A stretch of DNA of 64,000 nt from a virus, in the UHGV virus genome UHGV-0038495. The stretch is one strand, 5' to 3'. Below are positions 5,353 through 61,991 of this stretch, piece by piece (the stretch's first letter is position 1; every line of letters begins with the position of its first letter). Under the pieces are notes generated by a model. It was given only the letters and a program-made list of their open reading frames with translations, did not search any database and was not told the DNA's origin. The position numbers and the translations under genes were made by a program.

Positions 5353-7467
5353 TTAATCTCCTAAATGAGTGACTCTGTCGTGAATATCTGCCGCACGACC
5401 CTCGTTAAACGGGTTTGTACTTATATATCCGCAGATTCGGAGCGCGACATTCATTTTATTATAATCATCATTACCACACTGTGGACAATGAAACTTTAAA
5501 TCATCGCCCATATAAATATCAGTACAACCACACTTATGGCAATAACTTGTCATTGTATTTATTTCAGCATACATAATATTTTCATATATATACTTAATAA
5601 CTTCTAATATTGCCGGAATATTTTTTGTCATATTTGGAGTTTCAATATAAGAAATCGCGCCACCCGGACTAAGTTCCTGAAACTCGCTTTCGATCTTTAA
5701 TTTAGAAAAAGCATCTATAGGCTGTGCCGGCGTAATATGATAACTATTAGTCACATAATCTTTATCGGTTATTCCTTTAATAATGCCAAATCTTTTCTTC
5801 AATGCTTTTGCAAACTTATAAGTTGTACTTTCTATTGGAGAACCATAAACTGAAAATCCTATAGTAGTTTCTTCTCTCCATTTAGCACAAGCATCATTTA
5901 AAGCTTGCATGACAGATAAACCGAATTCTTTACCATAATCTTCAAGCTGACTTTCTCCTGTCATATATTTAATACATTCAAATAAACCTGCATATCCAAG
6001 TGAAATTGTAGAATAATTATTATATAAAAGTTTATCTATCTTTTCGCCCGGAGCTAATCTCGCATATGCGCCATGTTGCCAGAGTATAGGAGCTACATCT
6101 GAGACAGTACCCTTTAAACTATTATGTCTTGTCATTAAAGCTCTATAACATAATTCAAGCCTCTCATCAAGAATCTTCCAAAACTTTTCCATGTTTCCAC
6201 CAGAGCTTAAAGCTACATCTGGAAGATTAATGGTAACTACACCTTGATTAAATCGACCCCAATACTTATGCCCTTCTGGGTCTGGGGTTAGGAACGACCT
6301 ACAGCCCATACAACCGTAAACGTCGCCCTTAAGTTCTCGCATCTTCTTCGCAGATATATAATCTGGCACTAAGCGCTTTGCGCTACATTCCGCAGCTAAT
6401 TTTGTAAGATACCAATATTTAGTTCCTTTTTTTATATTATTATCATCAAGACAATAAAGCAACTTAGGAAAAGCTATTGTTATAGGCGCACCTTTTTCAT
6501 TTGGAACTCCTTCAATTCTTTGTTTAAGAATTTCTTCAATTAAAGTTGCTAAATCTTTTTTAGTAACTTCATCTTCAACCTCATTAATCCACATAAAAAC
6601 CGAAGTAAAAGGTGCTTGACCATTGGTTGTACTCATTGTAATAAGCTGATACTGAATAGTTTGAACGCCATCTCTAATCTCTTCTCTTACTAAGGATTCT
6701 ATTTGTTCTGTTGTAAAATCTGGATGCTTTCTTTTTATTTCCTGTCTAGATACGTCTATAAAAGGAGCTAGATGTGCGAGCGTGATGGTATTTCCACCGT
6801 ATTGTGAGCTAGCTACTTGAGTAATAATTTGAGTTGCAATAGTACAAGCAGTTCTAAATGAATGAGGTTTATGTATCTGTACTCCAGAAATAACTGTACC
6901 ATTCTGAAGCATATCCTCAAGATTTATCAAACAACAGTTCGACATAGGCATAACGGGAGAATAGTCAGTGTCGTGGTAATGTATAATACCTGCTTCATGC
7001 GCTTCTATAATGTCTTTGGGAAGAATAACTTTTTCTGCTAATTCTCTACAAGTAAATCCTGCAATATAATCTCTCATGGTAGGAATAATTCTTGTATCTT
7101 TATTACTATTTTCTTTATTACTTTCTTCATCCTGTCCGGTAATTAATTTATGTAAGCGCTGATAACGATTTTCTAAATCACTATTCGTGGCTCTATCCTG
7201 TTCTCTTTTATATCTATATCTAATATACGCGCGAGCTACATCAGTTCTTTCAGAATCCATTAAATAAGTTTCAACTAAATTCTGTATCTCTTCGATAGAA
7301 AGAGAATCTACTGAACGCGCAATCTTTTCTATGTCATCAGCAATATCCATTGCTGTTTCATTCTCATATAATTTGCCATCAACTTCTATAAAAGCTTTAT
7401 TAATAGCTTTTATAATTTTGTTTTTATCAAAATCAACCTTACTACCATTTCTTTTAATAACTTTCAT
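5353..7467 (-). CDS. nrdD: Anaerobic ribonucleoside-triphosphate reductase (class III)
   Basis: 704 aa. C-terminal zinc ribbon (CHKCGC...CPQCG) followed by the glycyl-radical motif ALRICGYISTNPFNEGRAADIHDR. Confidence 0.9.
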   Translation of the reverse strand: MKVIKRNGSKVDFDKNKIIKAINKAFIEVDGKLYENETAMDIADDIEKIARSVDSLSIEEIQNLVETYLMDSERTDVARAYIRYRYKREQDRATNSDLENRYQRLHKLITGQDEESNKENSNKDTRIIPTMRDYIAGFTCRELAEKVILPKDIIEAHEAGIIHYHDTDYSPVMPMSNCCLINLEDMLQNGTVISGVQIHKPHSFRTACTIATQIITQVASSQYGGNTITLAHLAPFIDVSRQEIKRKHPDFTTEQIESLVREEIRDGVQTIQYQLITMSTTNGQAPFTSVFMWINEVEDEVTKKDLATLIEEILKQRIEGVPNEKGAPITIAFPKLLYCLDDNNIKKGTKYWYLTKLAAECSAKRLVPDYISAKKMRELKGDVYGCMGCRSFLTPDPEGHKYWGRFNQGVVTINLPDVALSSGGNMEKFWKILDERLELCYRALMTRHNSLKGTVSDVAPILWQHGAYARLAPGEKIDKLLYNNYSTISLGYAGLFECIKYMTGESQLEDYGKEFGLSVMQALNDACAKWREETTIGFSVYGSPIESTTYKFAKALKKRFGIIKGITDKDYVTNSYHITPAQPIDAFSKLKIESEFQELSPGGAISYIETPNMTKNIPAILEVIKYIYENIMYAEINTMTSYCHKCGCTDIYMGDDLKFHCPQCGNDDYNKMNVALRICGYISTNPFNEGRAADIHDRVTHLGD

Positions 7468-25573: not shown

Positions 25574-25617
25574 AACTTTCTATAATTATTATAACAAAAT
25601 TTTTTGAGTTTTTGAAG
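25574..25617 (-). promoter_or_regulatory. Conserved sigma-A-type promoter cassette (TTCAAA-N17-TGTTATAAT)
   Basis: Minus-strand reading is cTTCAAAaactcaaaaaattttgTTATAATaattatagaaagtt, followed by GAGGAA and ATG of an unlisted 52-aa ORF. Confidence 0.55.
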
Positions 25618-35603: not shown

Positions 35604-36533
35604 TTATTTAATAGTTTTATATAAAATCCAATCTAAATTAAGATTATCTTTGATTAAATCATAATTCAAATCTTCTCTATTCTTATGCGCTATATTAAAC
35701 TCTGGTTTATATTTATTAATAAGAATAGCTTCTAATAAGTCTAATTCTTTTTTAGAGCCGCAAGTTGTATAGTATATTTCGCCTTTAAAATTATATAATT
35801 TATCTTGAGTATGCTGCTGGACTCTTCTTTTTAGAGAAATTGTCTGTCCAATATAAACAATATTGTCATTAGATACATATTTATATAAATAAAAATTATC
35901 ATTAGAAATATTAGAAACTTCTTCCAAAGAGTTAGGATTTTCATAAAAAGTAAAAGTTTTAGTTGTTTTATCTAAAATAAGAAAACCTTTGTTTATAAGT
36001 TCTTTGAGAACAGTTCTATATGTTGTATGAGAAAAATTACATTTATCAAGAATATCTTTTGTACTTAATGGTTGAGAAAGTTGAGAACTTAAAGAAGAAA
36101 AATAACACCATGCTTTGAATTCATTAGCAGATAATATTTTCATAGCATAGAACATTGCTTGATAAGAAAAAACAATGTTCTGAACATTTTCTTCTTTATT
36201 TATACAAATACTTCTTTGATTTGGCACTTTCTTTGTAATAATATTAAAAGGATCTTCATAAAAATTCCAAATTTTCATTCGTTTTTCTATAGTACTTTCA
36301 GAAGTTTCTTTTAAAAACCCTTTTTCAATCAGCTCTTTAATCGCTTTATTATATTTATATTCAGTTAATCCAGAATTTTTATTAGATAAAGCAAAATCAG
36401 TTGATTGATTCTTAATATAAGAATATAAAACAAATCCTTCAGGAGAAAGACTATTTAAAATTACACTTATATCTTTTATTTCTCCTCTTATAATTCTTAT
36501 AAATTTTTGGTTGTTGAAATTTGTTGTAGCCAT
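35604..36533 (-). CDS. GIY-YIG endonuclease with N-terminal winged-helix repeats (free-standing homing-endonuclease-like)
   Basis: C-terminal FYLYKYVSNDNIVYIGQTISLKRRVQQH....E. Two KxIKELIxKGFL wHTH-like repeats in the N-terminal half. Confidence 0.55.
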   Translation of the reverse strand: MATTNFNNQKFIRIIRGEIKDISVILNSLSPEGFVLYSYIKNQSTDFALSNKNSGLTEYKYNKAIKELIEKGFLKETSESTIEKRMKIWNFYEDPFNIITKKVPNQRSICINKEENVQNIVFSYQAMFYAMKILSANEFKAWCYFSSLSSQLSQPLSTKDILDKCNFSHTTYRTVLKELINKGFLILDKTTKTFTFYENPNSLEEVSNISNDNFYLYKYVSNDNIVYIGQTISLKRRVQQHTQDKLYNFKGEIYYTTCGSKKELDLLEAILINKYKPEFNIAHKNREDLNYDLIKDNLNLDWILYKTIK

Positions 36534-36846
36534 TCTCTGCTACCTCCTTTTATTTTTTAAATTTTGAAATATATAATTGTAGATTATCACTATCCTCAAA
36601 ATAAAATACATTCATCCAAGGTCTATCTCTATTAGGAGAAATTTTAACTATTTGGAAGTGATTATCTGTTAAAAACCTTGCAAGAGCAAGTGAGAAGCAA
36701 GGGAATAATTTTTTTTTCATTCTTTCACTCCTTTTTATTGGTATAATTTGCCTACTTTGTCTTTTTAAATTTTAAAATCTTAAAATAATAGGGAAGTAGA
36801 ATCAACCACTTCCCTAAAATATATAAAAATTATTTACAGCGCCTTA

Positions 36847-37317
36847 TTATTCATTGACCTTAATATTTTTACTACGGCGGGCGCGCACTTTATCATATAG
36901 ATCTGTTTTACTCTCTATATACTCCTTTAATTCTTTTCTCATTACCGTAACCTCTTCATTAATAAACTTTATTTCATCTCTACAGCGATTTGCTGCGCGA
37001 TAAATCATATAACCATTCTTATCTTTTTCTTCTTTTGCATTAACTCCATTCTCTAAATGCTCAAGAATCTTTAACTGCTGACTAAGCTCTATGTCTCTTA
37101 TCCAAGTAAGATAATTAATCATAGCTCTTGTTTCTGCAATAGCAAGACCGGTCTTTTCAGAACAAAACTCCATATCTTCAGGCGCGCACTGTGCTGTGCC
37201 TATAAAAACATTATCTGCAACACAAATAGTTACTGAAGCAAAGCCATCCTCATCAAACTGATACTCTTTCTTAATTCTTCTAATGTCTAACATTCTGTTT
37301 CCTTTCATTAATATCAT
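36847..37317 (-). CDS. hypothetical protein
   Basis: ORF on the coding strand. Last gene of the kinase/phosphoesterase operon. Confidence 0.35.
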   Translation of the reverse strand: MILMKGNRMLDIRRIKKEYQFDEDGFASVTICVADNVFIGTAQCAPEDMEFCSEKTGLAIAETRAMINYLTWIRDIELSQQLKILEHLENGVNAKEEKDKNGYMIYRAANRCRDEIKFINEEVTVMRKELKEYIESKTDLYDKVRARRSKNIKVNE

Positions 37318-37822
37318 TTAAAATTGTTTCTATATTAACTGGACAACAATCATGCGCCTCCAGTGAAACACAATATATCTTCTTATCTTTTATCTCAAAC
37401 TTTTCTTTGCTATGTGTATGCGCTGAAATATTCCATACATTAACGGGGTCGTCAAAATTATTGACAAAAGTAGGGTAATGTGACAGATAAAAACGCGTGT
37501 TCTTAGATGCTTTAAGCCTAGCTCCAAACTGTACGTCCTCAAATATACCTTCTTCAACATAGGTTTTTATCCTTTGGTCTGTGTCATGGTTACCGATAAT
37601 TAAGACCTTATGACCATTCATCTGTTTTATATATTCTATAGCGACAGCTGTATTACCTAGCGCGCAATCTCCTAGTACATAGACCGTATCCTCTGGAGTC
37701 ACGCGCGCGTTATGTCTTTCTACTATTGCTTCATTCATTTCTTCAATAGAATTAAATCCACGTGTTTTCCATATAAAATCTTTATCGTGACAAAAATGCC
37801 AGTCTCCGCAAAACCAAATCAT
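37280..37822 (-). CDS. Calcineurin-like metallophosphoesterase
   Basis: GDWH, VLGDCALG, IIGNHD, SAHTH motifs. Confidence 0.7.
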   Translation of the reverse strand: MIWFCGDWHFCHDKDFIWKTRGFNSIEEMNEAIVERHNARVTPEDTVYVLGDCALGNTAVAIEYIKQMNGHKVLIIGNHDTDQRIKTYVEEGIFEDVQFGARLKASKNTRFYLSHYPTFVNNFDDPVNVWNISAHTHSKEKFEIKDKKIYCVSLEAHDCCPVNIETILNDINERKQNVRH

Positions 37823-37845
37823 AATTTATACCTCCTCTCTTTTTT

Positions 37846-38364
37846 CTAAAAAGTAATACTCCAATACTCCATATTAAAGAATTCTTTCCAAAAGCGCTTT
37901 TCACTATCAGTTACTGGTTCAATAGAATCGGTCTGTTTTGAGATTACTTCAGAACCAACCTGCTCGCGCCCTAATCTTTTCTTGTCTCTTGCAATAGAAA
38001 TAGAAGGTTTTGTATCTATATGCATTACAATAACTTTATAACCATGTTCCTGCAAAGGTTCTTTAATAGCATTTAAAATTTTCTGTCTACTTGAGAAGTT
38101 TAAATGAGTTGCATCTAAAATAACATTATTTATTTCTGCTTTTATAGCTTCACAAGCCAAATGTGCGAACGTCTTAAATACTTTCTTTTCTTTTGCAAAA
38201 TATGCTTCATTCTCTTTTACAAGAGAAAAACGGACTGCATCGCGCGAAATCACTATAGAGTCCGAAAACTTAGACTGAAAATCACGTACCCAGGTAGACT
38301 TCCCCGAGCCACTTATTCCCATCATTAAATATAATTTTTTCATTAATGAAATACCTCTTTCCAT
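37846..38364 (-). CDS. P-loop polynucleotide-kinase-like kinase
   Basis: MMGISGSGKST Walker A. ISRDAVR. Size 172 aa. Operon with the metallophosphoesterase. Confidence 0.55.
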   Translation of the reverse strand: MERGISLMKKLYLMMGISGSGKSTWVRDFQSKFSDSIVISRDAVRFSLVKENEAYFAKEKKVFKTFAHLACEAIKAEINNVILDATHLNFSSRQKILNAIKEPLQEHGYKVIVMHIDTKPSISIARDKKRLGREQVGSEVISKQTDSIEPVTDSEKRFWKEFFNMEYWSITF

Positions 38365-38687
38365 TCATTTTTTTTAATAATTCTTCTCATATTTTCTCTT
38401 CCTACTGGATTAGCAGTATGGAGATGAATTGATATATTGTTTATTCCTTTTTCTTCCATTTTATCAAGTATCTTTATATAATCACCGCCATAAGCTACAT
38501 ATTCTCCTGCATCATGGTCTAAAGATATTTCTTCAATATCATTACGGAAAGCGAGAATTGTTTTTATTGCTTCTTTTGTGGTTATAATCCACATATAACC
38601 CTGTGGAGCAGGTCTTACATCATCTATCCAAAGTTTCATCATTTTATTTTTTCCTCTCTTTAACTTCTGATTGCTATTGCATAGCAA
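38343..38687 (-). CDS. hypothetical protein (first gene after a promoter-operator module)
   Basis: ORF on the coding strand. No motif recognised. Confidence 0.35.
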   Translation of the reverse strand: MLCNSNQKLKRGKNKMMKLWIDDVRPAPQGYMWIITTKEAIKTILAFRNDIEEISLDHDAGEYVAYGGDYIKILDKMEEKGINNISIHLHTANPVGRENMRRIIKKNEWKEVFH

Positions 38688-38691
38688 TCAC

Positions 38692-38735
38692 ACTTTCTAT
38701 AATAATTATAACAAAAAATTTACTGTTTTTGAAAA
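38692..38735 (-). promoter_or_regulatory. Conserved promoter cassette copy, followed by an 18-nt perfect palindrome
   Basis: Minus-strand reading TTTTCAAAAACAGTAAATTTTTTGTTATAATTATTATAGAAAGTG. Downstream lies TTGCTATtgcATAGCAA (38670..38688), then the ribosome-binding site of the 38687 gene. Confidence 0.5.
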
Positions 38736-38771
38736 TAGAAAAAGTCCTACTGTTAAGTAGGACTTAATTTA

Positions 38772-40094
38772 TTACATTTCTTCAAGTATATCTTCTGAAA
38801 GATTGGTCGCGCTTTCTGCTGTTTTTTCTACAATAATACCAGAAATTAACTTAAACAAATAATTTTTTAACTTATATGCTTCAAATTTTGGTGAATTTAC
38901 CTTACGTACAACTACACCTTCTCTTACATGAGTTCCATCTATTGGATCTGGGCCACTAGCATACTGTTCCGCCATCTGATAAACCCAATTACCCGCAGTC
39001 TTAAAACCTAACTGGTCTAAGGTTTCTTGGTCTGGAATAAATGTGCGCAGAAAAAGAGGCGGAGTCTTTATATTCATACGCTCACAATAAATTCTCATTA
39101 CATCTGGTGGTATTTCTATAACATCTTTATCCTCGTTAGTCATTGTCATTCTATAAACATAAATATCATGTTCTGCTGGCGTGCAACCATATGAGAATAT
39201 TATTTTATTACCATACTGCTTCTGATAATCCTTTGGAACTTTTGCTTCTCCCATAATAGGAGTTCCATCATTAGTATAACCAACAATTTCATAATAAGCA
39301 GTTACATCTTTAAATAACTTATCTGCAAATTCCTTTTCGCAATCTATTCTAAATGTATTATCATTATAGTAACCATCGCCTTCTTTGCGCGGATCCAGTA
39401 CCGTTCTCCTAGTACCAGATACATACCCCCAATCATAAACTGGCTTACCTTCGCGCTTAAAGATATGATCTAAGAACGACTTCTTAAATCCCTTTAATGT
39501 TGGAAGATGCGCAGTTCTACCTGAAGTACCATGGAGCTTAAGTGTAATCTCTATAAGGTCGCCTGGCGCGAACCTATCAAGATTATAAGCCAACTGCTGT
39601 GTATCTACATGCTCTTCAAACAAAGGCGCAATAGGAACAGAAAACTTCTTCTTTTTTGGAGTATAAGTACCTTCACGATGCTGGCGGCGCGGAACATACT
39701 TAGTTGCAATAACATGACCATTTAAAGTATCTACACAATCACCTATATTTACTTCGTCAAGATTTATACCTGTATACACAAGAGCAGACAATGGTAAGAA
39801 TAAGCCATCTGATTTTTCTCCTCTCAGTGCGATTGTTTTTACATTTCTCTTGTTAGGGTCTAAGTAACCTCCAATATTATTACCTGCGGCGTCCTTCTTT
39901 CTGCAAAGATTATTTTCTTCACAGAATTCCTCAGAAAGCTGTGCGCCTTCTGAGATATAAACACCTATTTCTCCTTCAGCGTAAGAAAGGTCTACACAAA
40001 TAGTATTACCAAAACATTCACCAAGCTGTAGTCTATCTGCATTTGGATGTTTTCTAAGATTCTTTAATGTTGTTACATAAGCATAATTAGACAT
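38772..40094 (-). CDS. Rnl2/Rnl5-like ATP-dependent RNA ligase with N-terminal tRNA-binding-type OB domain
   Basis: N-terminus LKNLRKHPNADRLQLGECFGNTICVDLS....GVYISEGAQL (Myf/Trbp111-type tRNA-binding OB signature). Motif I ITLKLHGTSG (KxHGxN as in T4 Rnl2). Motif IV REGVVVRK. Motif V YKLKN. Confidence 0.55.
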   Translation of the reverse strand: MSNYAYVTTLKNLRKHPNADRLQLGECFGNTICVDLSYAEGEIGVYISEGAQLSEEFCEENNLCRKKDAAGNNIGGYLDPNKRNVKTIALRGEKSDGLFLPLSALVYTGINLDEVNIGDCVDTLNGHVIATKYVPRRQHREGTYTPKKKKFSVPIAPLFEEHVDTQQLAYNLDRFAPGDLIEITLKLHGTSGRTAHLPTLKGFKKSFLDHIFKREGKPVYDWGYVSGTRRTVLDPRKEGDGYYNDNTFRIDCEKEFADKLFKDVTAYYEIVGYTNDGTPIMGEAKVPKDYQKQYGNKIIFSYGCTPAEHDIYVYRMTMTNEDKDVIEIPPDVMRIYCERMNIKTPPLFLRTFIPDQETLDQLGFKTAGNWVYQMAEQYASGPDPIDGTHVREGVVVRKVNSPKFEAYKLKNYLFKLISGIIVEKTAESATNLSEDILEEM

Positions 40095-40098
40095 TATA

Positions 40099-40917
40099 TC
40101 ACTCTCCTATCATTCTCCAAGATTTATAATACTTATTTCTTTTCTTTGCGGCTTCTAATATTTTTTCTGCAATTTCACTCTCTTCCTTATCTTCGATTTT
40201 CTTCTCAGATATAAGCCATTTTGCTGCTTCATTTGCTGTTTTAAAGGAATGTGTGACCTTCTTTTTAGTTGAAATCGTAACAATGGTTCCGCGCGGCAGG
40301 TCAGATTCAGTCCACTTAGGCTTAGGTTTAGCCTCTTCAAATTCGGTCAAGCGTGCCACTATCTTTTTTATTTCTGCTTTTTTATATTTCTCTTCACAAG
40401 AGTGAATAAACTGTAAAAGTATAGCATCATTTAAAGCATTATGATCCTGTTCTTTTGTATGGTCAAATGCCTGTGCAACTCTTAATAAACCACGCTGCTT
40501 AATATTATATCGCTGACAAAATCTCGTACCATAATCAGTAAGTCCGCCCGCTATATCGCCTAAAATCAGTCTTGCGCACGGGTCACTGGCACAATCCTTA
40601 AACGTACCTTTTACAAAATGAATATCTTCTGAACCCCAACAAAACCATTCGGGATTCCAATTTACTTCATTTTCTTTTGCCTCTTCCTCCTGTGCAAGTA
40701 CCCAATTATAAAATTCATTGAATACTTCTATTGCGCCTTTAGCATTATCAATATCTTCAATAGTAATTCCTGTAAGCTCTGTAATCATTTTACTAATTTT
40801 ATACCTACTCTCTGGCTTTACGAGAGAATAAAAAAAGTGACCATTCTCACAAACCGCGCCAATGGATATAATTCTATGACTAAACTGTGTTCCTTCAAAA
40901 TCTAAAAAATATTTCAT
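40099..40917 (-). CDS. DEDDh (DnaQ-like) 3'-5' exonuclease with C-terminal extension
   Basis: Exo I FLDFEGT. Exo II-like. Exo III HNALNDA. Confidence 0.7.
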   Translation of the reverse strand: MKYFLDFEGTQFSHRIISIGAVCENGHFFYSLVKPESRYKISKMITELTGITIEDIDNAKGAIEVFNEFYNWVLAQEEEAKENEVNWNPEWFCWGSEDIHFVKGTFKDCASDPCARLILGDIAGGLTDYGTRFCQRYNIKQRGLLRVAQAFDHTKEQDHNALNDAILLQFIHSCEEKYKKAEIKKIVARLTEFEEAKPKPKWTESDLPRGTIVTISTKKKVTHSFKTANEAAKWLISEKKIEDKEESEIAEKILEAAKKRNKYYKSWRMIGE

Positions 40918-41666
40918 TATCTATCTCCCTTTGCTAAAATATTCTTAAATAAATCTATAAATGCTTCCTTATTTCTTTCGTTTATATTTGTTGAAGTCAA
41001 AGTTGTTTTACAATCATATAACTCATATGGAATTTCGCGCGGACCTACTTTGAAAACTTCAGAACTATTCTTTATATTCATTAAAACTATGCTGCGCGCA
41101 GCAGATAATTCATATAAATTAGCATAGTTATTATTACAATATTTTTCAGCAGAATCTATTAATCTTAAATGATTTGCTAATGACTTGCCGTTAGAAACTT
41201 CCTTCTTTTCTTTTTCTCTTGCATCATCTAAATAAGATTTAGCTTGACCTAATATAGAGTTTATAGTCTTATTTGGATTTCCCTGTAAAAAAGAAAATCT
41301 CATATTTCTTAATTTTTCCCATTCTTCTATATATTTTTCATTTATTATTACATAGGACGTAAATAATAATTCGATAGTTGAAAAGTTACCTTTATCTAAT
41401 TCTTTAAAGAAGTCTATTAAATTCTTTGTAGTAATTTTATTATCATTAGCAGCTCCTATTTTAAATGTTGCATTTTTATTATAGCCAAACAAAACTTCTT
41501 TATAAGATGGTACTGTTATACAATACATATCTATATCAGAATTTTCATCTGCAAGACCATAATTCTGGCTTCCATAAAGAAAATATCCAAAGACTTCTTT
41601 ACTAGCTTCTATATTCGCCATTTCAGCCATGTGTTTCATATTTTCTATTATTGTTTTTCTTTCCAT
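40917..41666 (-). CDS. Pol-beta-superfamily nucleotidyltransferase (ANT/KNTase-like)
   Basis: FLYGSQNYGLADENSDIDMY matches GS-x9-13-SDID of minimal nucleotidyltransferases (AadA/LinB/KNTase-like). About 150 aa of helical C-terminus. 249 aa. Confidence 0.5.
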   Translation of the reverse strand: MERKTIIENMKHMAEMANIEASKEVFGYFLYGSQNYGLADENSDIDMYCITVPSYKEVLFGYNKNATFKIGAANDNKITTKNLIDFFKELDKGNFSTIELLFTSYVIINEKYIEEWEKLRNMRFSFLQGNPNKTINSILGQAKSYLDDAREKEKKEVSNGKSLANHLRLIDSAEKYCNNNYANLYELSAARSIVLMNIKNSSEVFKVGPREIPYELYDCKTTLTSTNINERNKEAFIDLFKNILAKGDR

Positions 41667-41686
41667 TTTATTTTCCTTTCTTCCTT

Positions 41687-41730
41687 AACTTTCTATAATT
41701 ATTATAACAAATTTTTTTGAGATTTTGAAA
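41687..41730 (-). promoter_or_regulatory. Conserved promoter cassette copy
   Basis: aactttctataattattataacaaatttttttgagattttgaaa (plus strand). Minus-strand reading gives TTCAAA-N17-TGTTATAAT. Confidence 0.5.
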
Positions 41731-41808
41731 AGTGAAAAAATGGCTTGTATAAAACAAGCCATTTAAAAGAAATTTATGTTTAACACTAATACTAATTAGT
41801 GATTTTAA

Positions 41809-42705
41809 CTATTTTTCAGTTATAAAAGCATTATAGCCTTTAACTCTTAAATCATCTACAACTTTCTGCGCATTTGCTTTTTTGCTAAAAACGCCAACCT
41901 GACATTTATAAAGTCCATTTATAAGTTTACAATAAGCATTTTTATACCCTGCACCAATAGTATCTTCTAATCTTTTTATTCTATCTACAAGAGCAAGGCA
42001 ATTAGTCTGAGATTTAAATGCGCCAACCTGTACTGTATATAAAACCTTTTTAACTGGTTCTTCAATAGGACTAATAGTTGTCTTTCTATAAAAGCAAATT
42101 ACATTATCAACTGCGCGATTGTAGTTCTCTGAGGTTATAGATTCACCTTTGACTAAAATTTTTGTACTGCCGCCGCCATCTAAGTTTATTGCATGAGTAC
42201 AGTGTAAACCAAGCATAATATTAGTTAAGCCAGTAAAAGTTAGACCTCTGCCTTCAACAGCGACAAGAAATATCTTATTAGCATTATAACCAAGTGCAGT
42301 TCTGCGCGCCTTATAATCGAGTTCTTTAGCTATATCAGTCGAAACTCTTACACCATTGCACACAAGTGGAGGATATCCACTGATAAAATCAATGAATTTA
42401 CCTTCATCAATATTACCATATTCTAATTCACCTGTTGCGCGATTAATACCCATACCAATCTTATATTTTACTGTAGTAGAAATTGCTTTATCACCTGTTC
42501 TATACTCAAACATAGTAACGCCGTCAGCCATATTAAACAAGCCGCCATTACATATAACGTCTGGTTTTATTGTCTGCCTCTTGTAAAAAGAGCTTAAAGT
42601 CTCGCGCGGCTGCTGACATAAAGCAAAATGAATCTTTGAAAGTTCTGATTTTTCAAACTCTACTACAGTTATATCCGCATTATTTACATATTTATATGTT
42701 TTCAA
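41809..42705 (-). CDS. Phosphodiester glycosidase (NAGPA/DUF2233) fused to C-terminal SPOR domain
   Basis: CNGGLFNM, RTALGYN, AINLDGGGST (NAGPA core). The C-terminal ~75 aa YTVQVGAFKSQTNCLALVDRIK....GYNAFI is a SPOR-type fold signature. Confidence 0.55.
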   Translation of the reverse strand: MKTYKYVNNADITVVEFEKSELSKIHFALCQQPRETLSSFYKRQTIKPDVICNGGLFNMADGVTMFEYRTGDKAISTTVKYKIGMGINRATGELEYGNIDEGKFIDFISGYPPLVCNGVRVSTDIAKELDYKARRTALGYNANKIFLVAVEGRGLTFTGLTNIMLGLHCTHAINLDGGGSTKILVKGESITSENYNRAVDNVICFYRKTTISPIEEPVKKVLYTVQVGAFKSQTNCLALVDRIKRLEDTIGAGYKNAYCKLINGLYKCQVGVFSKKANAQKVVDDLRVKGYNAFITEK

Positions 42706-43659: not shown

Positions 43660-43701
43660 AACTTTATAATTATTATAACAAAATTTTTTGAGTTTTTGAA
43701 G
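43660..43701 (-). promoter_or_regulatory. Conserved promoter cassette copy
   Basis: actttataattattataacaaaattttttgagtttttgaag. Confidence 0.5.
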
Positions 43702-51866: not shown

Positions 51867-51958
51867 TGGAGGAAGGAGTGAGATTCGAACTCACATGCCG
51901 AAGAACTTCGACCTAACGCTTTAGCAGAGCGCCCTCTTTACCATTTGAGTACCCTTCC
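51867..51958 (-). tRNA. tRNA-Ser (GCU), class II with long variable arm, CCA encoded
   Basis: Acceptor GGAAGGG/TCCTTCC. Anticodon stem GCGCU/AGCGU, loop CU-GCU-AA. 7-bp variable-arm hairpin GTCGAAG-TT-CTTCGGC. T arm GTGAG-TTCGAAT-CTCAC. Ends TCCA. Confidence 0.8.
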
Positions 51959-52312
51959 TTATCTATATCCTACTTTATCATACATTGGCGCGAATGTCTT
52001 TACTCTATTATGAGTTACAATACCTAACAATTTCTTTTTATTATCTTTTTCTTTAATATAAATCTTGGATTCATCTGTACTGACCGCGCCTCTACCTTTA
52101 GGGTACGTAAACCGCTTCGCGCATTTTTCAAGATATTTCATATCAACCGTTGGTATTTCCATGCGCCCAGCAGAACTAATTATAATGAATACTGGTAAGC
52201 CATCCTTGTTAAAATAAGGATTGGCTTCAGCAATCTTACCACACCAATCTATATGAAATTCAGAATGAACATCTGTAGTTATAAGGTGTGTCTTTATCTT
52301 TACCTCTTGCAT
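51959..52312 (-). CDS. hypothetical protein
   Basis: ORF on the coding strand between tRNAs. Confidence 0.35.
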   Translation of the reverse strand: MQEVKIKTHLITTDVHSEFHIDWCGKIAEANPYFNKDGLPVFIIISSAGRMEIPTVDMKYLEKCAKRFTYPKGRGAVSTDESKIYIKEKDNKKKLLGIVTHNRVKTFAPMYDKVGYR

Positions 52313-52314
52313 AT

Positions 52315-52521
52315 TTATCTCCTTTGTAAGTTTGCGAAAAAATCTGTTATATCTTTATTTTCTTTTCTTGTTTCTATTGTTTCACTTGGTTCTATACTAT
52401 TTGTTTTATGATTTGGATTATTTTCTTTCCAACATTTCAAAAAATGTCTTGACATTCTACTTTCTTTTTCATTTTCAAATTCGCATTTACATATTGGGCA
52501 AATATACATTTTATTCTCCAT
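52315..52521 (-). CDS. Small zinc-ribbon protein
   Basis: CPICKC....H..C. Confidence 0.35.
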   Translation of the reverse strand: MENKMYICPICKCEFENEKESRMSRHFLKCWKENNPNHKTNSIEPSETIETRKENKDITDFFANLQRR

Positions 52522-52875
52522 TTTAAGTTTTCAGGTTTAGATTAAATTGGCGGCGGATGAAGGTAACGCTCCTTCTCTTTTTGGGTCAAAGCCAAATGTA
52601 CTAACTTTTATACGAATCCGCTATATTAAAGCGGGTTCTAAGGTCAACCCGCAGACCGTTCAGAAAGGGGACAAAAAATGAATAAAAAAATATCTTCAAA
52701 TGGAAACTTAAGCCTTTCTAAGTTTCCTCTCTAATTTTCTCTTTACTCCCGGAGATTTCATATTAATTTCTCTCGCGTTAAGTTTTGCAAGTCGCGCACT
52801 ATAAATTGCTTTCTTCTGTTCTCTTGTCATAATCTTTCTCCTTTAGTATATCTTCAAATTCTTTCCTTTTTTTAT

Positions 52876-52950
52876 TGGTGCGCCCGGACGGTTACGATCC
52901 GACCTAATCGAAATTAAAAGTTTCGTGCCTCTCCACTAGGCTACGGGCAC
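52876..52950 (-). tRNA. tRNA-Lys (UUU), non-canonical T arm
   Basis: Perfect 7-bp acceptor GTGCCCG/CGGGCGC plus ACCA. D stem GCCT/AGGC. Anticodon stem CGAAA/TTTCG, loop CU-UUU-AA. T stem has one T-T mismatch and the T loop is ATCGTAA rather than TTCRANY. Confidence 0.5.
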
Positions 52951-52954
52951 ATGT

Positions 52955-53030
52955 TGGTGGAGGTTAAGAGATTCGAACTCTTGACCTTCTGCGTGCAAAG
53001 CAGATGCTCTCCCAACTGAGCTAAACCCCC
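52955..53030 (-). tRNA. tRNA-Ala (UGC), CCA encoded
   Basis: Acceptor GGGGGTT/AACCTCC with the G3-U70 Ala identity pair. D arm GCTCAGTTGGGAGAGC. Anticodon loop UU-UGC-AC. T arm AAGAG-TTCGAAT-CTCTT. Confidence 0.8.
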
Positions 53031-53367
53031 ATTTATTCCTTTTTCCTCCGTCAGAGCAGATTAAGGATAACTGGCACGCGTACTATAAGGATTTTCTCCC
53101 TCAAGCGGAAAACCCGTTAGAAAATAACTACTTCTAATTTAGCAAATCTATACCTTAGACCTATCGAAGAAACATTTTAAAGCAATCGACTTCCGCGGGT
53201 GCAACTACTTTGCAATGCTACCGTATCTTTAGTGATGTGTATAAATCAGTATCCGAGAGACGCCACGAGGAGGCATTAGAAGACTTTTTATCTCTCATAA
53301 GTGGAAGCTGCAATCTCCCACTTTATCTATCATAATGTGAGGAGGTGAATTATGATACATTTCATGC

Positions 53368-53441
53368 TGGAGCCAATAACGAGAATCGAACTCATAACTA
53401 AGCCTTACCATGGCTTTGTTTTACCTTTAAACTATATCGGC
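53368..53441 (-). tRNA. tRNA-Thr (GGU), CCA encoded
   Basis: Acceptor GCCGATA/TATTGGC (one G-U). D arm GTTT-AAAGGTA-AAAC. Anticodon stem AAGCC/GGCTT, loop AU-GGU-AA. T arm ATGAG-TTCGATT-CTCGT. Confidence 0.7.
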
Positions 53442-60154: not shown

Positions 60155-60232
60155 TCTGTCATAAGCCTTCCTTTAATTATTAATTTATTTTATACAAATA
60201 TTATAACAAGTTTTTTAAAAAATTTGAAAAAG

Positions 60233-61934: not shown

Positions 61935-61991
61935 TTCCTTTAACTTATATATATATTATAACAAATTTTTTTGAGAATTTGAAAGTCGGAA
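61935..61991 (-). promoter_or_regulatory. Promoter cassette copy (long variant)
   Basis: ttataacaaatttttttgagaatttgaaagtcgga. Confidence 0.5.

Follow-up and report, generated by a model that had tools for sequence, protein, structure and literature searches.

The 64,000-nt stretch of phage genome UHGV-0038495 analyzed here (the window) carries a set of six or seven genes that we read, with a probability of about 0.7, as a cassette for the repair of RNA breaks by healing, trimming or filling, and sealing, arranged in two co-oriented predicted operons of one promoter class. An earlier reading based on the letters and open reading frames (ORFs) alone (the sequence-only reading) had proposed a three-component module, consisting of a ligase fused to a tRNA-binding domain, a polynucleotide kinase-like protein, and a calcineurin-like phosphoesterase. 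All three ORFs are present at 37280–40094 on the minus strand; their products (a ligase of 440 aa, a kinase of the P-loop type, and a metallophosphoesterase) have intact catalytic motifs and are supported as an RNA end-healing and sealing set by profiles, fold, and motifs. The count of three was too low: a cyclic-phosphate-processing receiver-like (cREC) protein, the RlaP-like identity of an upstream nucleotidyltransferase, a small gene (orf148), and the split into two operons had been missed.

The ligase (38772–40094, minus strand) is, judging by profiles, motifs, and its AlphaFold2 (AF2) model compared by Foldseek, a divergent and longer relative of the Rnl5-type ATP-dependent RNA ligases, and not an equivalog of TIGR02306, the family of DraRnl. 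In the AF2 model (30-sequence alignment; mean predicted local distance difference test score, pLDDT, of 75.8), an N-terminal OB domain (residues ~1–133, pLDDT roughly 75–92) is followed by a basic, low-confidence linker (134–161) and a C-terminal nucleotidyltransferase domain (162–440). In an alignment of 30 homologues (55–88% identity), the motifs quoted in the sequence-only reading (KLHGTS, EGVVVRK, KLK, and HPNADRL) proved to be real and invariant, and its numbering of K186, the predicted AMP acceptor, was correct. Within the N-terminal signature HPNADRL (H16, P, N18, A19, D20, R, L), residues H16, N18, A19, and D20 are invariant. Motif I reads T184-L-K186-L-H188-G189-T190-S191, with K186, H188, G189, T190, and S191 invariant and T184 at least 90% conserved, and motif IV (E392-G-V-V-V-R397) and the two lysines of motif V (K408-L-K410) do not vary; motifs Ia, III, and IIIa were located by eye only. 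This pattern agrees with the DraRnl residues T163, K165, H167, G168, and 305-EGVVV-309 (PMC1807946).

Over its full length, the ligase matches PHROG 968 "RNA ligase" (E 9.5e-62). Its match to TIGR02306 (E 3.6e-14, residues 10–196) scores 52.4 bits, below the 151-bit equivalog cut-off; all 30 homologues match the same profile, with a best E value no better than 1e-19. PF09414 is matched at 27.5 bits (cut-off 27), and the OB domain PF21189 is matched by homologues of the ligase. In the Foldseek comparison with the PDB, the top 13 matches were all full-length structures of NgrRnl from Naegleria gruberi (E 8e-17 to 2e-15), followed by T4 Rnl2 (1e-7), trypanosome REL1, and archaeal Rnl3, whereas T4 Rnl1 reached only 2e-3 and DNA ligases 3e-3 or worse. 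The protein therefore models as an RNA ligase, and on this ranking, a DNA ligase or a capping enzyme was rejected. NgrRnl was not recovered from the PDB by sequence with the ligase, the 30-sequence profile, or residues 1–200 as queries; hence, the link to Rnl5 rests on TIGR02306 and the fold comparison.

Because it is longer than canonical Rnl5 enzymes (440 vs ~340 aa), scores 52 bits against the 151 of the equivalog cut-off, and cannot be connected to NgrRnl by sequence, the ligase belongs to a distinct and very large phage subfamily (PHROG 968). The clade comprises at least 7962 clusters at 90% identity; at 50% identity, the matches with E ≤1e-3 number 3301 clusters, of which the best 150 were all of the long phage type and included no bridge to the canonical 340-aa enzymes. 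It is abundant in gut phage metagenomes, where it is regularly paired with a DEDDh exonuclease, and counts among its members the proteins annotated "RNA ligase" in mycobacteriophages such as Omega, as well as the ligase of Bacillus phage PBC2 (locus L085, KT070867.1 80801–82078), the closest homologue from a cultured phage (45% identity). The PBC2 protein is labeled "2'-5' RNA ligase," which looks like a mis-annotation, since it belongs to the ATP-dependent Rnl5-like clade. Six homologues (P0138, P0143, P0151, P0155, P0156, and P0265) are ~790–813 aa long, and their match is split near query residues 190–200, just past motif I, which suggests an inserted element such as an intein. Another homologue (L033, 5998–7353) is intact except for one in-frame TAG (6658–6660) at the position of window residue V219, which may reflect a nonsense mutation, an error in sequencing, or stop-codon recoding.

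The first of the healing enzymes is a T4-Pnk-type polynucleotide 5'-kinase, identified by profiles, phmmer, and conservation. The listed ORF (37846–38364, 172 aa) most likely overstates its length: the overlap of its ATG with the cREC stop codon (TAATG), an AAAGAGG ribosome-binding site, and the alignment with T4 Pnk, which begins at this Met, place the start at M8 (position 38343), giving a predicted protein of 165 aa (37846–38343, minus strand). It matches AAA_33 (E 5e-17) and PHROG 505 "polynucleotide kinase" (E 7e-24), and the kinase part only of TIGR04075 bacter_Pnkp (E 6e-12, 44.5 bits vs a 750-bit cut-off). The best solved relatives are T4 Pnk (1LY1/1LTQ, phmmer E 2.7e-6), the Clostridium thermocellum Pnkp kinase domain (4GP6, 5e-4), and Pnkp1 (4XRP). 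The GSGKST, SRDxxR, and RxxxR motifs align in register with T4 Pnk, and K15, S16, D35, R38, R119, and R123 are 90–100% conserved among 40 homologues. In T4 Pnk, the essential residues are the P-loop K15 and S16, the general base D35 and R38, which bind the 5'-OH polynucleotide, and the lid residue R126; with the M8 start, K15, S16, D35, and R38 of the phage kinase are numbered identically. The sequence-only reading had named a deoxynucleoside monophosphate (dNMP) kinase as the alternative for this protein. The alignment and conserved catalytic residues argue against such an enzyme, and with T4 Pnk and the CthPnkp kinase domain as best solved relatives, that reading was rejected.

The second is a 180-aa calcineurin-like metallophosphoesterase (37280–37822, minus strand), recognized by profiles (PF00149, E 4e-7, 31 bits vs cut-off 21.5; PHROG 547, E 9e-42) and by five motifs, D7-x-H9, G51-D52, G77-N78-H79-D80, H115, and H135-x-H137, in which all residues except D7 are at least 85% conserved among 42 homologues. 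Its only significant solved relative is the uncharacterized Aquifex protein aq_1665 (1XM7), and no match to Pnkp was found in this search. From its context, it is predicted to be an end-healing enzyme acting on 2',3'-cyclic phosphates or 3'-phosphates. A 2',3'-cyclic phosphodiesterase activity is known from metallophosphoesterases of the lambda-phosphatase/CthPnkp type (PMC2190708), and HD-Pnk, encoded beside a ligase in Runella, is a characterized end-healing enzyme (PMC6097658).

Between the ligase and the kinase lies the gene of the 99-aa cREC protein (38343–38642, minus strand; PF20274 cREC_REC, E 7e-21 to 1e-20, 75.1 bits vs cut-off 27). Residues D7, D8, D44, H75, and N78 are conserved among 21 homologues, the three aspartates at 100%; a sequence search returned no solved relative. 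The protein is a predicted metal-independent 2',3'-cyclic phosphodiesterase: the family is predicted to open cyclic phosphates and is operon-linked to RNA ligases (PMC7824862), its activity being predicted and experimentally uncharacterized (PMC9503650).

Upstream of the ligase, the DEDDh exonuclease and nucleotidyltransferase genes are as the sequence-only reading described them (40099–40917 and 40917–41666, both minus strand). The 249-aa nucleotidyltransferase is RlaP-like by its similarity to PHROG 388 (E 2e-19) and PF10127, the latter matched by 17/25 of its homologues (E <1e-3; best 2e-6), and by a Pol-beta motif (G32-S33...D44-x-D46, i.e., GS...DxD) that is invariant among them; no solved RlaP structure was found by sequence. 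Enzymes of this family (Pseudomonas RlaP) add one or two NMP to damaged RNA 3' ends in vitro (PMC12776372), and the phage protein is predicted to add one or two nucleotides to RNA 3'-OH ends. The 272-aa DEDDh 3'-5' exonuclease matches PF00929 (E 6e-10, 40.4 bits, cut-off 24), its relatives also match PF16473 (Rv2179c-like), and D6, E8, D98, H159, and D164 are 100% conserved among 31 homologues. It has a C-terminal extension of ~90 residues (about 185–272; window 40099–40380) with conserved A231, I253, Y263, and W267, for which Pfam gave no match and which may be a nucleic-acid-binding module. PADLOC returned only a generic DEDDh match for the cassette, which is not a known defense system.

The last gene before the terminator, orf148 (36847–37293, minus strand), encodes an uncharacterized protein whose start (MLDIRR) is backed by homologues; in its AF2 model (pLDDT 82), three beta strands lead into a long helical hairpin. 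Pfam gave no match, Foldseek against the PDB found nothing significant (best Rv1738, E 0.024, and weak dsRBD-like matches), and in BFVD, it matched only uncharacterized phage proteins. Its membership in the repair module is uncertain.

All genes of the region are on the minus strand, and terminator- and promoter-like signals, whose functions are predicted from consensus matches, flank two strings of closely coupled genes in which stop and start codons overlap. A terminator-like hairpin with a T run just past the ligase stop codon (38742–38765) and a promoter-like site before cREC (P2, 38705–38733), both on the minus strand and found by inspection of the DNA and consensus scans, suggest that the region is split into two operons. 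Operon 1 (41729–38742) would comprise, in order, the RlaP-like, DEDDh exonuclease, and ligase genes, and operon 2 (38733–36789) the cREC, kinase, metallophosphoesterase, and orf148 genes. The DEDDh start overlaps the RlaP stop (ATGA), and the ligase begins 4 nt past the end of the DEDDh gene; the orf148 start (37293) falls within the 3'-terminal part of the metallophosphoesterase gene, with translational coupling of the two. On the same strand, a terminator-like hairpin ends the gene upstream of operon 1 (41764–41738), a second promoter-like site (P1, TTCAAA-N17-TATAAT with a TG extension, 41701–41729) precedes the RlaP-like gene, and a further terminator-like hairpin ends operon 2 (36789–36816).

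Since P2 follows the same TTCAAA-N17-TATAAT pattern as P1, both operons appear to fall in one promoter class. Exact copies of the pattern occur six times in the window (25588–25616, 38705–38733, 41701–41729, 43672–43700, 60200–60228, and 61955–61983) against 0.07 expected, all on the minus strand, which is the coding strand, and each ending TTGTTATAAT. They are probably one phage promoter class and would be handy for mapping transcription units. Both P2 and the hairpin past the ligase are kept in two relatives, L004 (78%) and L005 (ligase 97% identical). The stretch from P2 to the cREC ribosome-binding site contains a perfect 23-nt palindrome, TGATTGCTATGCAATAGCAATCA (38668–38690), which is single-copy in the window and absent from both of these relatives; it could be an operator or a 5' untranslated region hairpin.

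To follow the genes across related phages, 120 loci were gathered from viral contigs, assemblies, and genomes, and their ORFs were searched with the window proteins; co-occurrence was counted within about 6 kb of the ligase in 109 non-identical ligase loci. The RlaP-like gene was present in 68/109, the DEDDh exonuclease in 30 (directly upstream of the ligase in 21), cREC in 22, and orf148 in 16. A short kinase with an adjacent metallophosphoesterase was found in 32 loci and a ~300-aa fusion of kinase and HD phosphohydrolase in 26. A Pfam HD domain, C-terminal to the kinase, was confirmed in 5/5 fusions tested (L008 8684–9676; L035 8148–9074; L051 9873–10745; L081 9742–10683; and L016 10102–11001). 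Gene order differs among the loci, and the split pair alternates with the fusion, which suggests that the metallophosphoesterase and the HD domain play equivalent roles and is the best contextual argument for the metallophosphoesterase as the 3'-end healing partner.

The accessory repair genes appear to be facultative and to be gained and lost among close relatives. For example, in L005, cREC is precisely absent and the promoter leads straight into the kinase (L005 7290–7460 vs window 38300–38800), and L004 has cREC and lacks the RlaP-like gene. In mycobacteriophage Omega, a DEDDh gene lies two genes from the ligase. The neighbors of the ligase in a 180-kb relative (L001, 10828–17347) are Thg1, an isochorismatase-family protein, NAPRTase, a nucleotidyltransferase, NAD synthase, NADAR, and a metallophosphoesterase, and RNA repair is linked there to NAD salvage.

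In the cassette that we propose, operon 2 would heal the ends left by metal-independent host ribonucleases. The cREC protein, the metallophosphoesterase, or both would open the 2',3'-cyclic phosphate and strip the remaining phosphate to leave a 2'-OH,3'-OH end, and the kinase would phosphorylate the 5'-OH end. Operon 1 would then remodel and seal: the RlaP-like enzyme may put back one or two missing 3'-terminal nucleotides, the DEDDh exonuclease may trim ragged or wrongly extended 3' ends, and the ligase, after forming ligase-(K186)-AMP, would transfer AMP onto the 5'-phosphate (AppRNA) and seal a 3'-OH RNA/5'-phosphate nick in a duplex or stem. The likely purpose would be to undo host RNA-cleaving defenses, such as anticodon nucleases and similar ribotoxins.

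Several observations weigh against this reading. The metallophosphoesterase does not detectably belong to the CthPnkp/lambda-phosphatase clade, which is why its role was assigned from context, and the match of the nucleotidyltransferase to PF10127 (E 4e-4, 20.6 bits) falls short of the 23-bit cut-off. The phages that supplied the related loci are kindred and syntenic, and the co-occurrence counts consequently overstate the independent support. The cassette is also surrounded by genes of replication, namely those for DNA polymerase, helicases, RecJ, and topoisomerase II. Moreover, characterized Rnl5 ligases seal duplex nicks with an RNA 3'-OH strand, a single-stranded anticodon-loop break not being a demonstrated substrate (PMC4408790), and DraRnl contributes to radiation resistance (PMC5397189), which makes a role in DNA or RNA-DNA repair possible.

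A tRNA substrate for the cassette was part of the sequence-only reading, which saw in the OB domain a device that steers the ligase directly to cleaved tRNAs and would make it a dedicated tRNA ligase like T4 Rnl1. The phage itself has five tRNA genes (51867–53441, minus strand: Ser-GCT, Gln-TTG, Lys-TTT, Ala-TGC, and Thr-GGT), and because tRNA-Lys(UUU) is the classic target of PrrC, its tRNA supply and RNA repair may be complementary. As for the domain, part of the Myf/Trbp111-type assignment stood: the HPNADRL signature is present, and by Foldseek, the N domain alone shares the tRNA_bind OB fold (PheRS B2/Myf/Trbp111 type), with matches to PheRS beta (1.5e-4), YtpR (3e-3), the tRNA-binding protein 3BU2 (6e-3), MetRS-C (8e-3), p43 (9e-3), and Arc1p-C (4.5e-2). 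The Pfam side did not, as tRNA_bind (PF01588) gave no match in the window ligase at E values up to 0.01 and E 0.26 over 17 residues in one homologue. The fusion of OB domain and ligase is, furthermore, the defining and already published architecture of Rnl5 and not a new targeting device (PMC1807946, PMC4408790, PMC7261155). DraRnl was described in 2007 as a C-terminal adenylyltransferase with an N-terminal module, a putative homologue of the PheRS beta B2 OB fold, and its phage homologues were noted (PMC1807946); the OB fold was later confirmed in NgrRnl (PMC7261155). Adenylylation of the lysine and nick sealing depend on this domain, which contacts the gamma phosphate of ATP and is dispensable when the nick is pre-adenylylated (PMC4408790, PMC7261155). 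DraRnl and NgrRnl are nick sealers with no reported tRNA preference, their N domain works in adenylylation and nick sensing, and tRNA binding is not reported for any Rnl5 N domain (PMC1807946, PMC4408790, PMC7261155). Targeting of tRNA by the OB domain is doubtful and was not borne out as the function of the fusion. Given the preference of Rnl5 enzymes for duplex nicks, the substrate could be a break in or next to a tRNA stem, in an rRNA helix, or at an RNA-DNA junction. As a tentative elaboration that we hold with low confidence, the RlaP-like, DEDDh, and Rnl5 proteins of operon 1 might form one 3'-end editing machine for damage that excises nucleotides (RloC-type ribotoxins), with the OB domain holding the broken tRNA stem and cREC as an exchangeable accessory that fits the healing operon to the kind of ends left by a particular host nuclease. 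If so, the long Rnl5 clade that abounds in gut phages would constitute a system dedicated to countering ribotoxins, and the first physiological substrate of Rnl5 ligases would be in hand.

Two further explanations place the genes outside RNA repair. The location of the cassette among replication and recombination genes, together with an RNase H gene in the L004 neighborhood, would suit an accessory of replication or of DNA or RNA-DNA junction repair. In such a role, the ligase would seal nicks whose 3'-OH strand ends in ribonucleotides, for instance after ribo-patch gap filling or at primer remnants; DNA ends with a 5'-OH or a 3'-phosphate would be healed by the kinase and phosphoesterase and resected by the DEDDh exonuclease. 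Rnl5 needs only its 3'-OH strand to be RNA and accepts a DNA 5'-phosphate strand, a role in DNA repair has been proposed for it, and deletion of DraRnl makes Deinococcus radiation-sensitive (PMC4408790, PMC5397189); DNA ends are likewise substrates of T4 Pnk and HD-Pnk (PMC6097658). Nonetheless, we consider this explanation unlikely. The cREC protein is RNA-specific by its chemistry, 2',3'-cyclic phosphates forming only on ribose (PMC9503650), RlaP accepted only RNA among the cellular macromolecules assayed (PMC12776372), and the same ligase is tied elsewhere to Thg1 and NAD-salvage genes, which are RNA-repair themes. It is also conceivable, and in our view improbable, that the genes are mere syntenic neighbors, with a ligase acting alone and a kinase and phosphoesterase engaged in nucleotide or signal-molecule metabolism, such as the degradation of defense signals derived from cyclic nucleotides or ADP-ribose. 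Derivatives of cyclic ADP-ribose are indeed among the predicted substrates of cREC and calcineurin-like enzymes (PMC9503650). Each gene string is a predicted transcription unit of its own, 43/109 ligase loci have no kinase or phosphoesterase in the flanks examined, and cREC is dispensable in the 97%-identical relative. Set against this are the D35/R38 pair of the kinase, which is specific to polynucleotide kinases and aligned to T4 Pnk, the pairing of kinase and phosphoesterase (split or HD-fused) beside the ligase in 58 loci of varied gene order, and the single predicted promoter class of both operons.

Read as an RNA-repair cassette, the region works like the T4 Pnkp-Rnl1 and bacterial Pnkp-Hen1 systems and is a member of neither, because the ligase family and phosphatase type differ and the genes are split rather than fused. 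It shares with T4 a phage-encoded set of 5' kinase, remover of 2',3'-phosphates, and ATP-dependent ligase, and its kinase is a homologue of T4 Pnk with the same catalytic residues. In T4, however, a HAD phosphatase is fused to the kinase, whereas here a separate metallophosphoesterase and cREC take that place, the ligase is of the Rnl5 and not the Rnl1 type, and the RlaP-like and DEDDh proteins are added. The chemistries of P-loop kinase, binuclear metallophosphoesterase, and adenylyltransferase ligase recur in Pnkp-Hen1 of C. thermocellum, although there they reside in a single polypeptide rather than in separate genes of two operons, the ligase is Rnl4, and the metallophosphoesterase is of a kind with which ours has no detectable kinship. 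No Hen1 methyltransferase was seen among the neighboring genes scanned, and no Thg1, RtcB, KptA, or 2H protein was found among the other window ORFs scanned for them. The Runella slithyformis cluster also joins a polynucleotide kinase to an HD phosphoesterase beside an ATP-dependent ligase, as do the relatives of our phage, but in the order HD-kinase rather than kinase-HD; the window itself has the split version and lacks Tpt1. Characterized Rnl5 enzymes (DraRnl and NgrRnl; TIGR02306; PDB 5COT) resemble the window ligase in their N-terminal PheRS-B2-type OB domain, C-terminal nucleotidyltransferase domain, and lack of a separate C-terminal domain, as well as in motifs I (T-x-K-x-H-G), IV (EGVVV), and V (K-x-K), with NgrRnl as the best full-length structural match. 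Their sealing of duplex nicks is ATP-dependent, with Mn2+ as the preferred metal. They differ in being ~100 residues shorter, and the window model has, in addition to the basic linker, a long beta hairpin past motif I (190–228) and a C-terminal helix.

The module is not unusual: such neighborhoods are published, and the ligase family is thousands strong. Phages of medium and large size have been described in which these domain families, with the roles predicted here, are operon-linked to ATP-dependent RNA ligases (PMC7824862, PMC9503650, PMC12776372), and Aravind and co-workers describe phage neighborhoods in which cREC and RlaP are operon-linked to RNA ligases and polynucleotide kinases occur with calcineurin-like or HD phosphoesterases (PMC7824862, PMC9503650). 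The described neighborhoods, however, are centered on T4-like Rnl1/Rnl2 ligases, often with sirtuin or KptA, and actinophage ligases homologous to that of the window are mentioned only as "rare divergent versions" (PMC7824862, PMC9503650). No DEDDh partner is mentioned in the sections consulted, a comparison that is incomplete to that extent (PMC7824862, PMC9503650). Accordingly, the architecture of the ligase, the healing enzymes, and their linkage in phages are already described, and the discovery is incremental. If the reading is right, a phage of gut Clostridia would carry a full toolkit to reverse RNA cleavage by host defenses, a further indication that, beyond the T4 model, phages commonly counter host defenses by RNA repair. 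A compact, co-regulated six-enzyme set would also be convenient for reconstituting the pathway and for addressing the Rnl5 substrate, the activity of cREC, and the question of whether Rnl5 acts on tRNA.

Ligase relatives were found in metagenome-assembled genomes and isolates of gut Clostridia (Clostridiales bacterium CCNA10, Dysosmobacter segnis, Hominicoprocola fusiformis, Lachnospiraceae, and Oscillospiraceae), and because they lie in Clostridia bins and prophage-like contexts, the host is probably a member of the gut Clostridia. Close relatives of the phage are contigs of 123–134 kb, and its genome is put at roughly 120–135 kb. A Megablast search of 37000–42000 against GenBank phages gave no match, that is, no close cultured relative. 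The window also carries a PolC/DnaE-like DNA polymerase, helicases, RecJ, DnaB, Sak4, and both subunits of topoisomerase II. Just downstream of the repair operons (35604–36533, minus strand) lies a gene whose 309-aa product combines winged-helix DNA-binding domains with a GIY-YIG nuclease domain at the C terminus; it is probably a homing-endonuclease-like gene.

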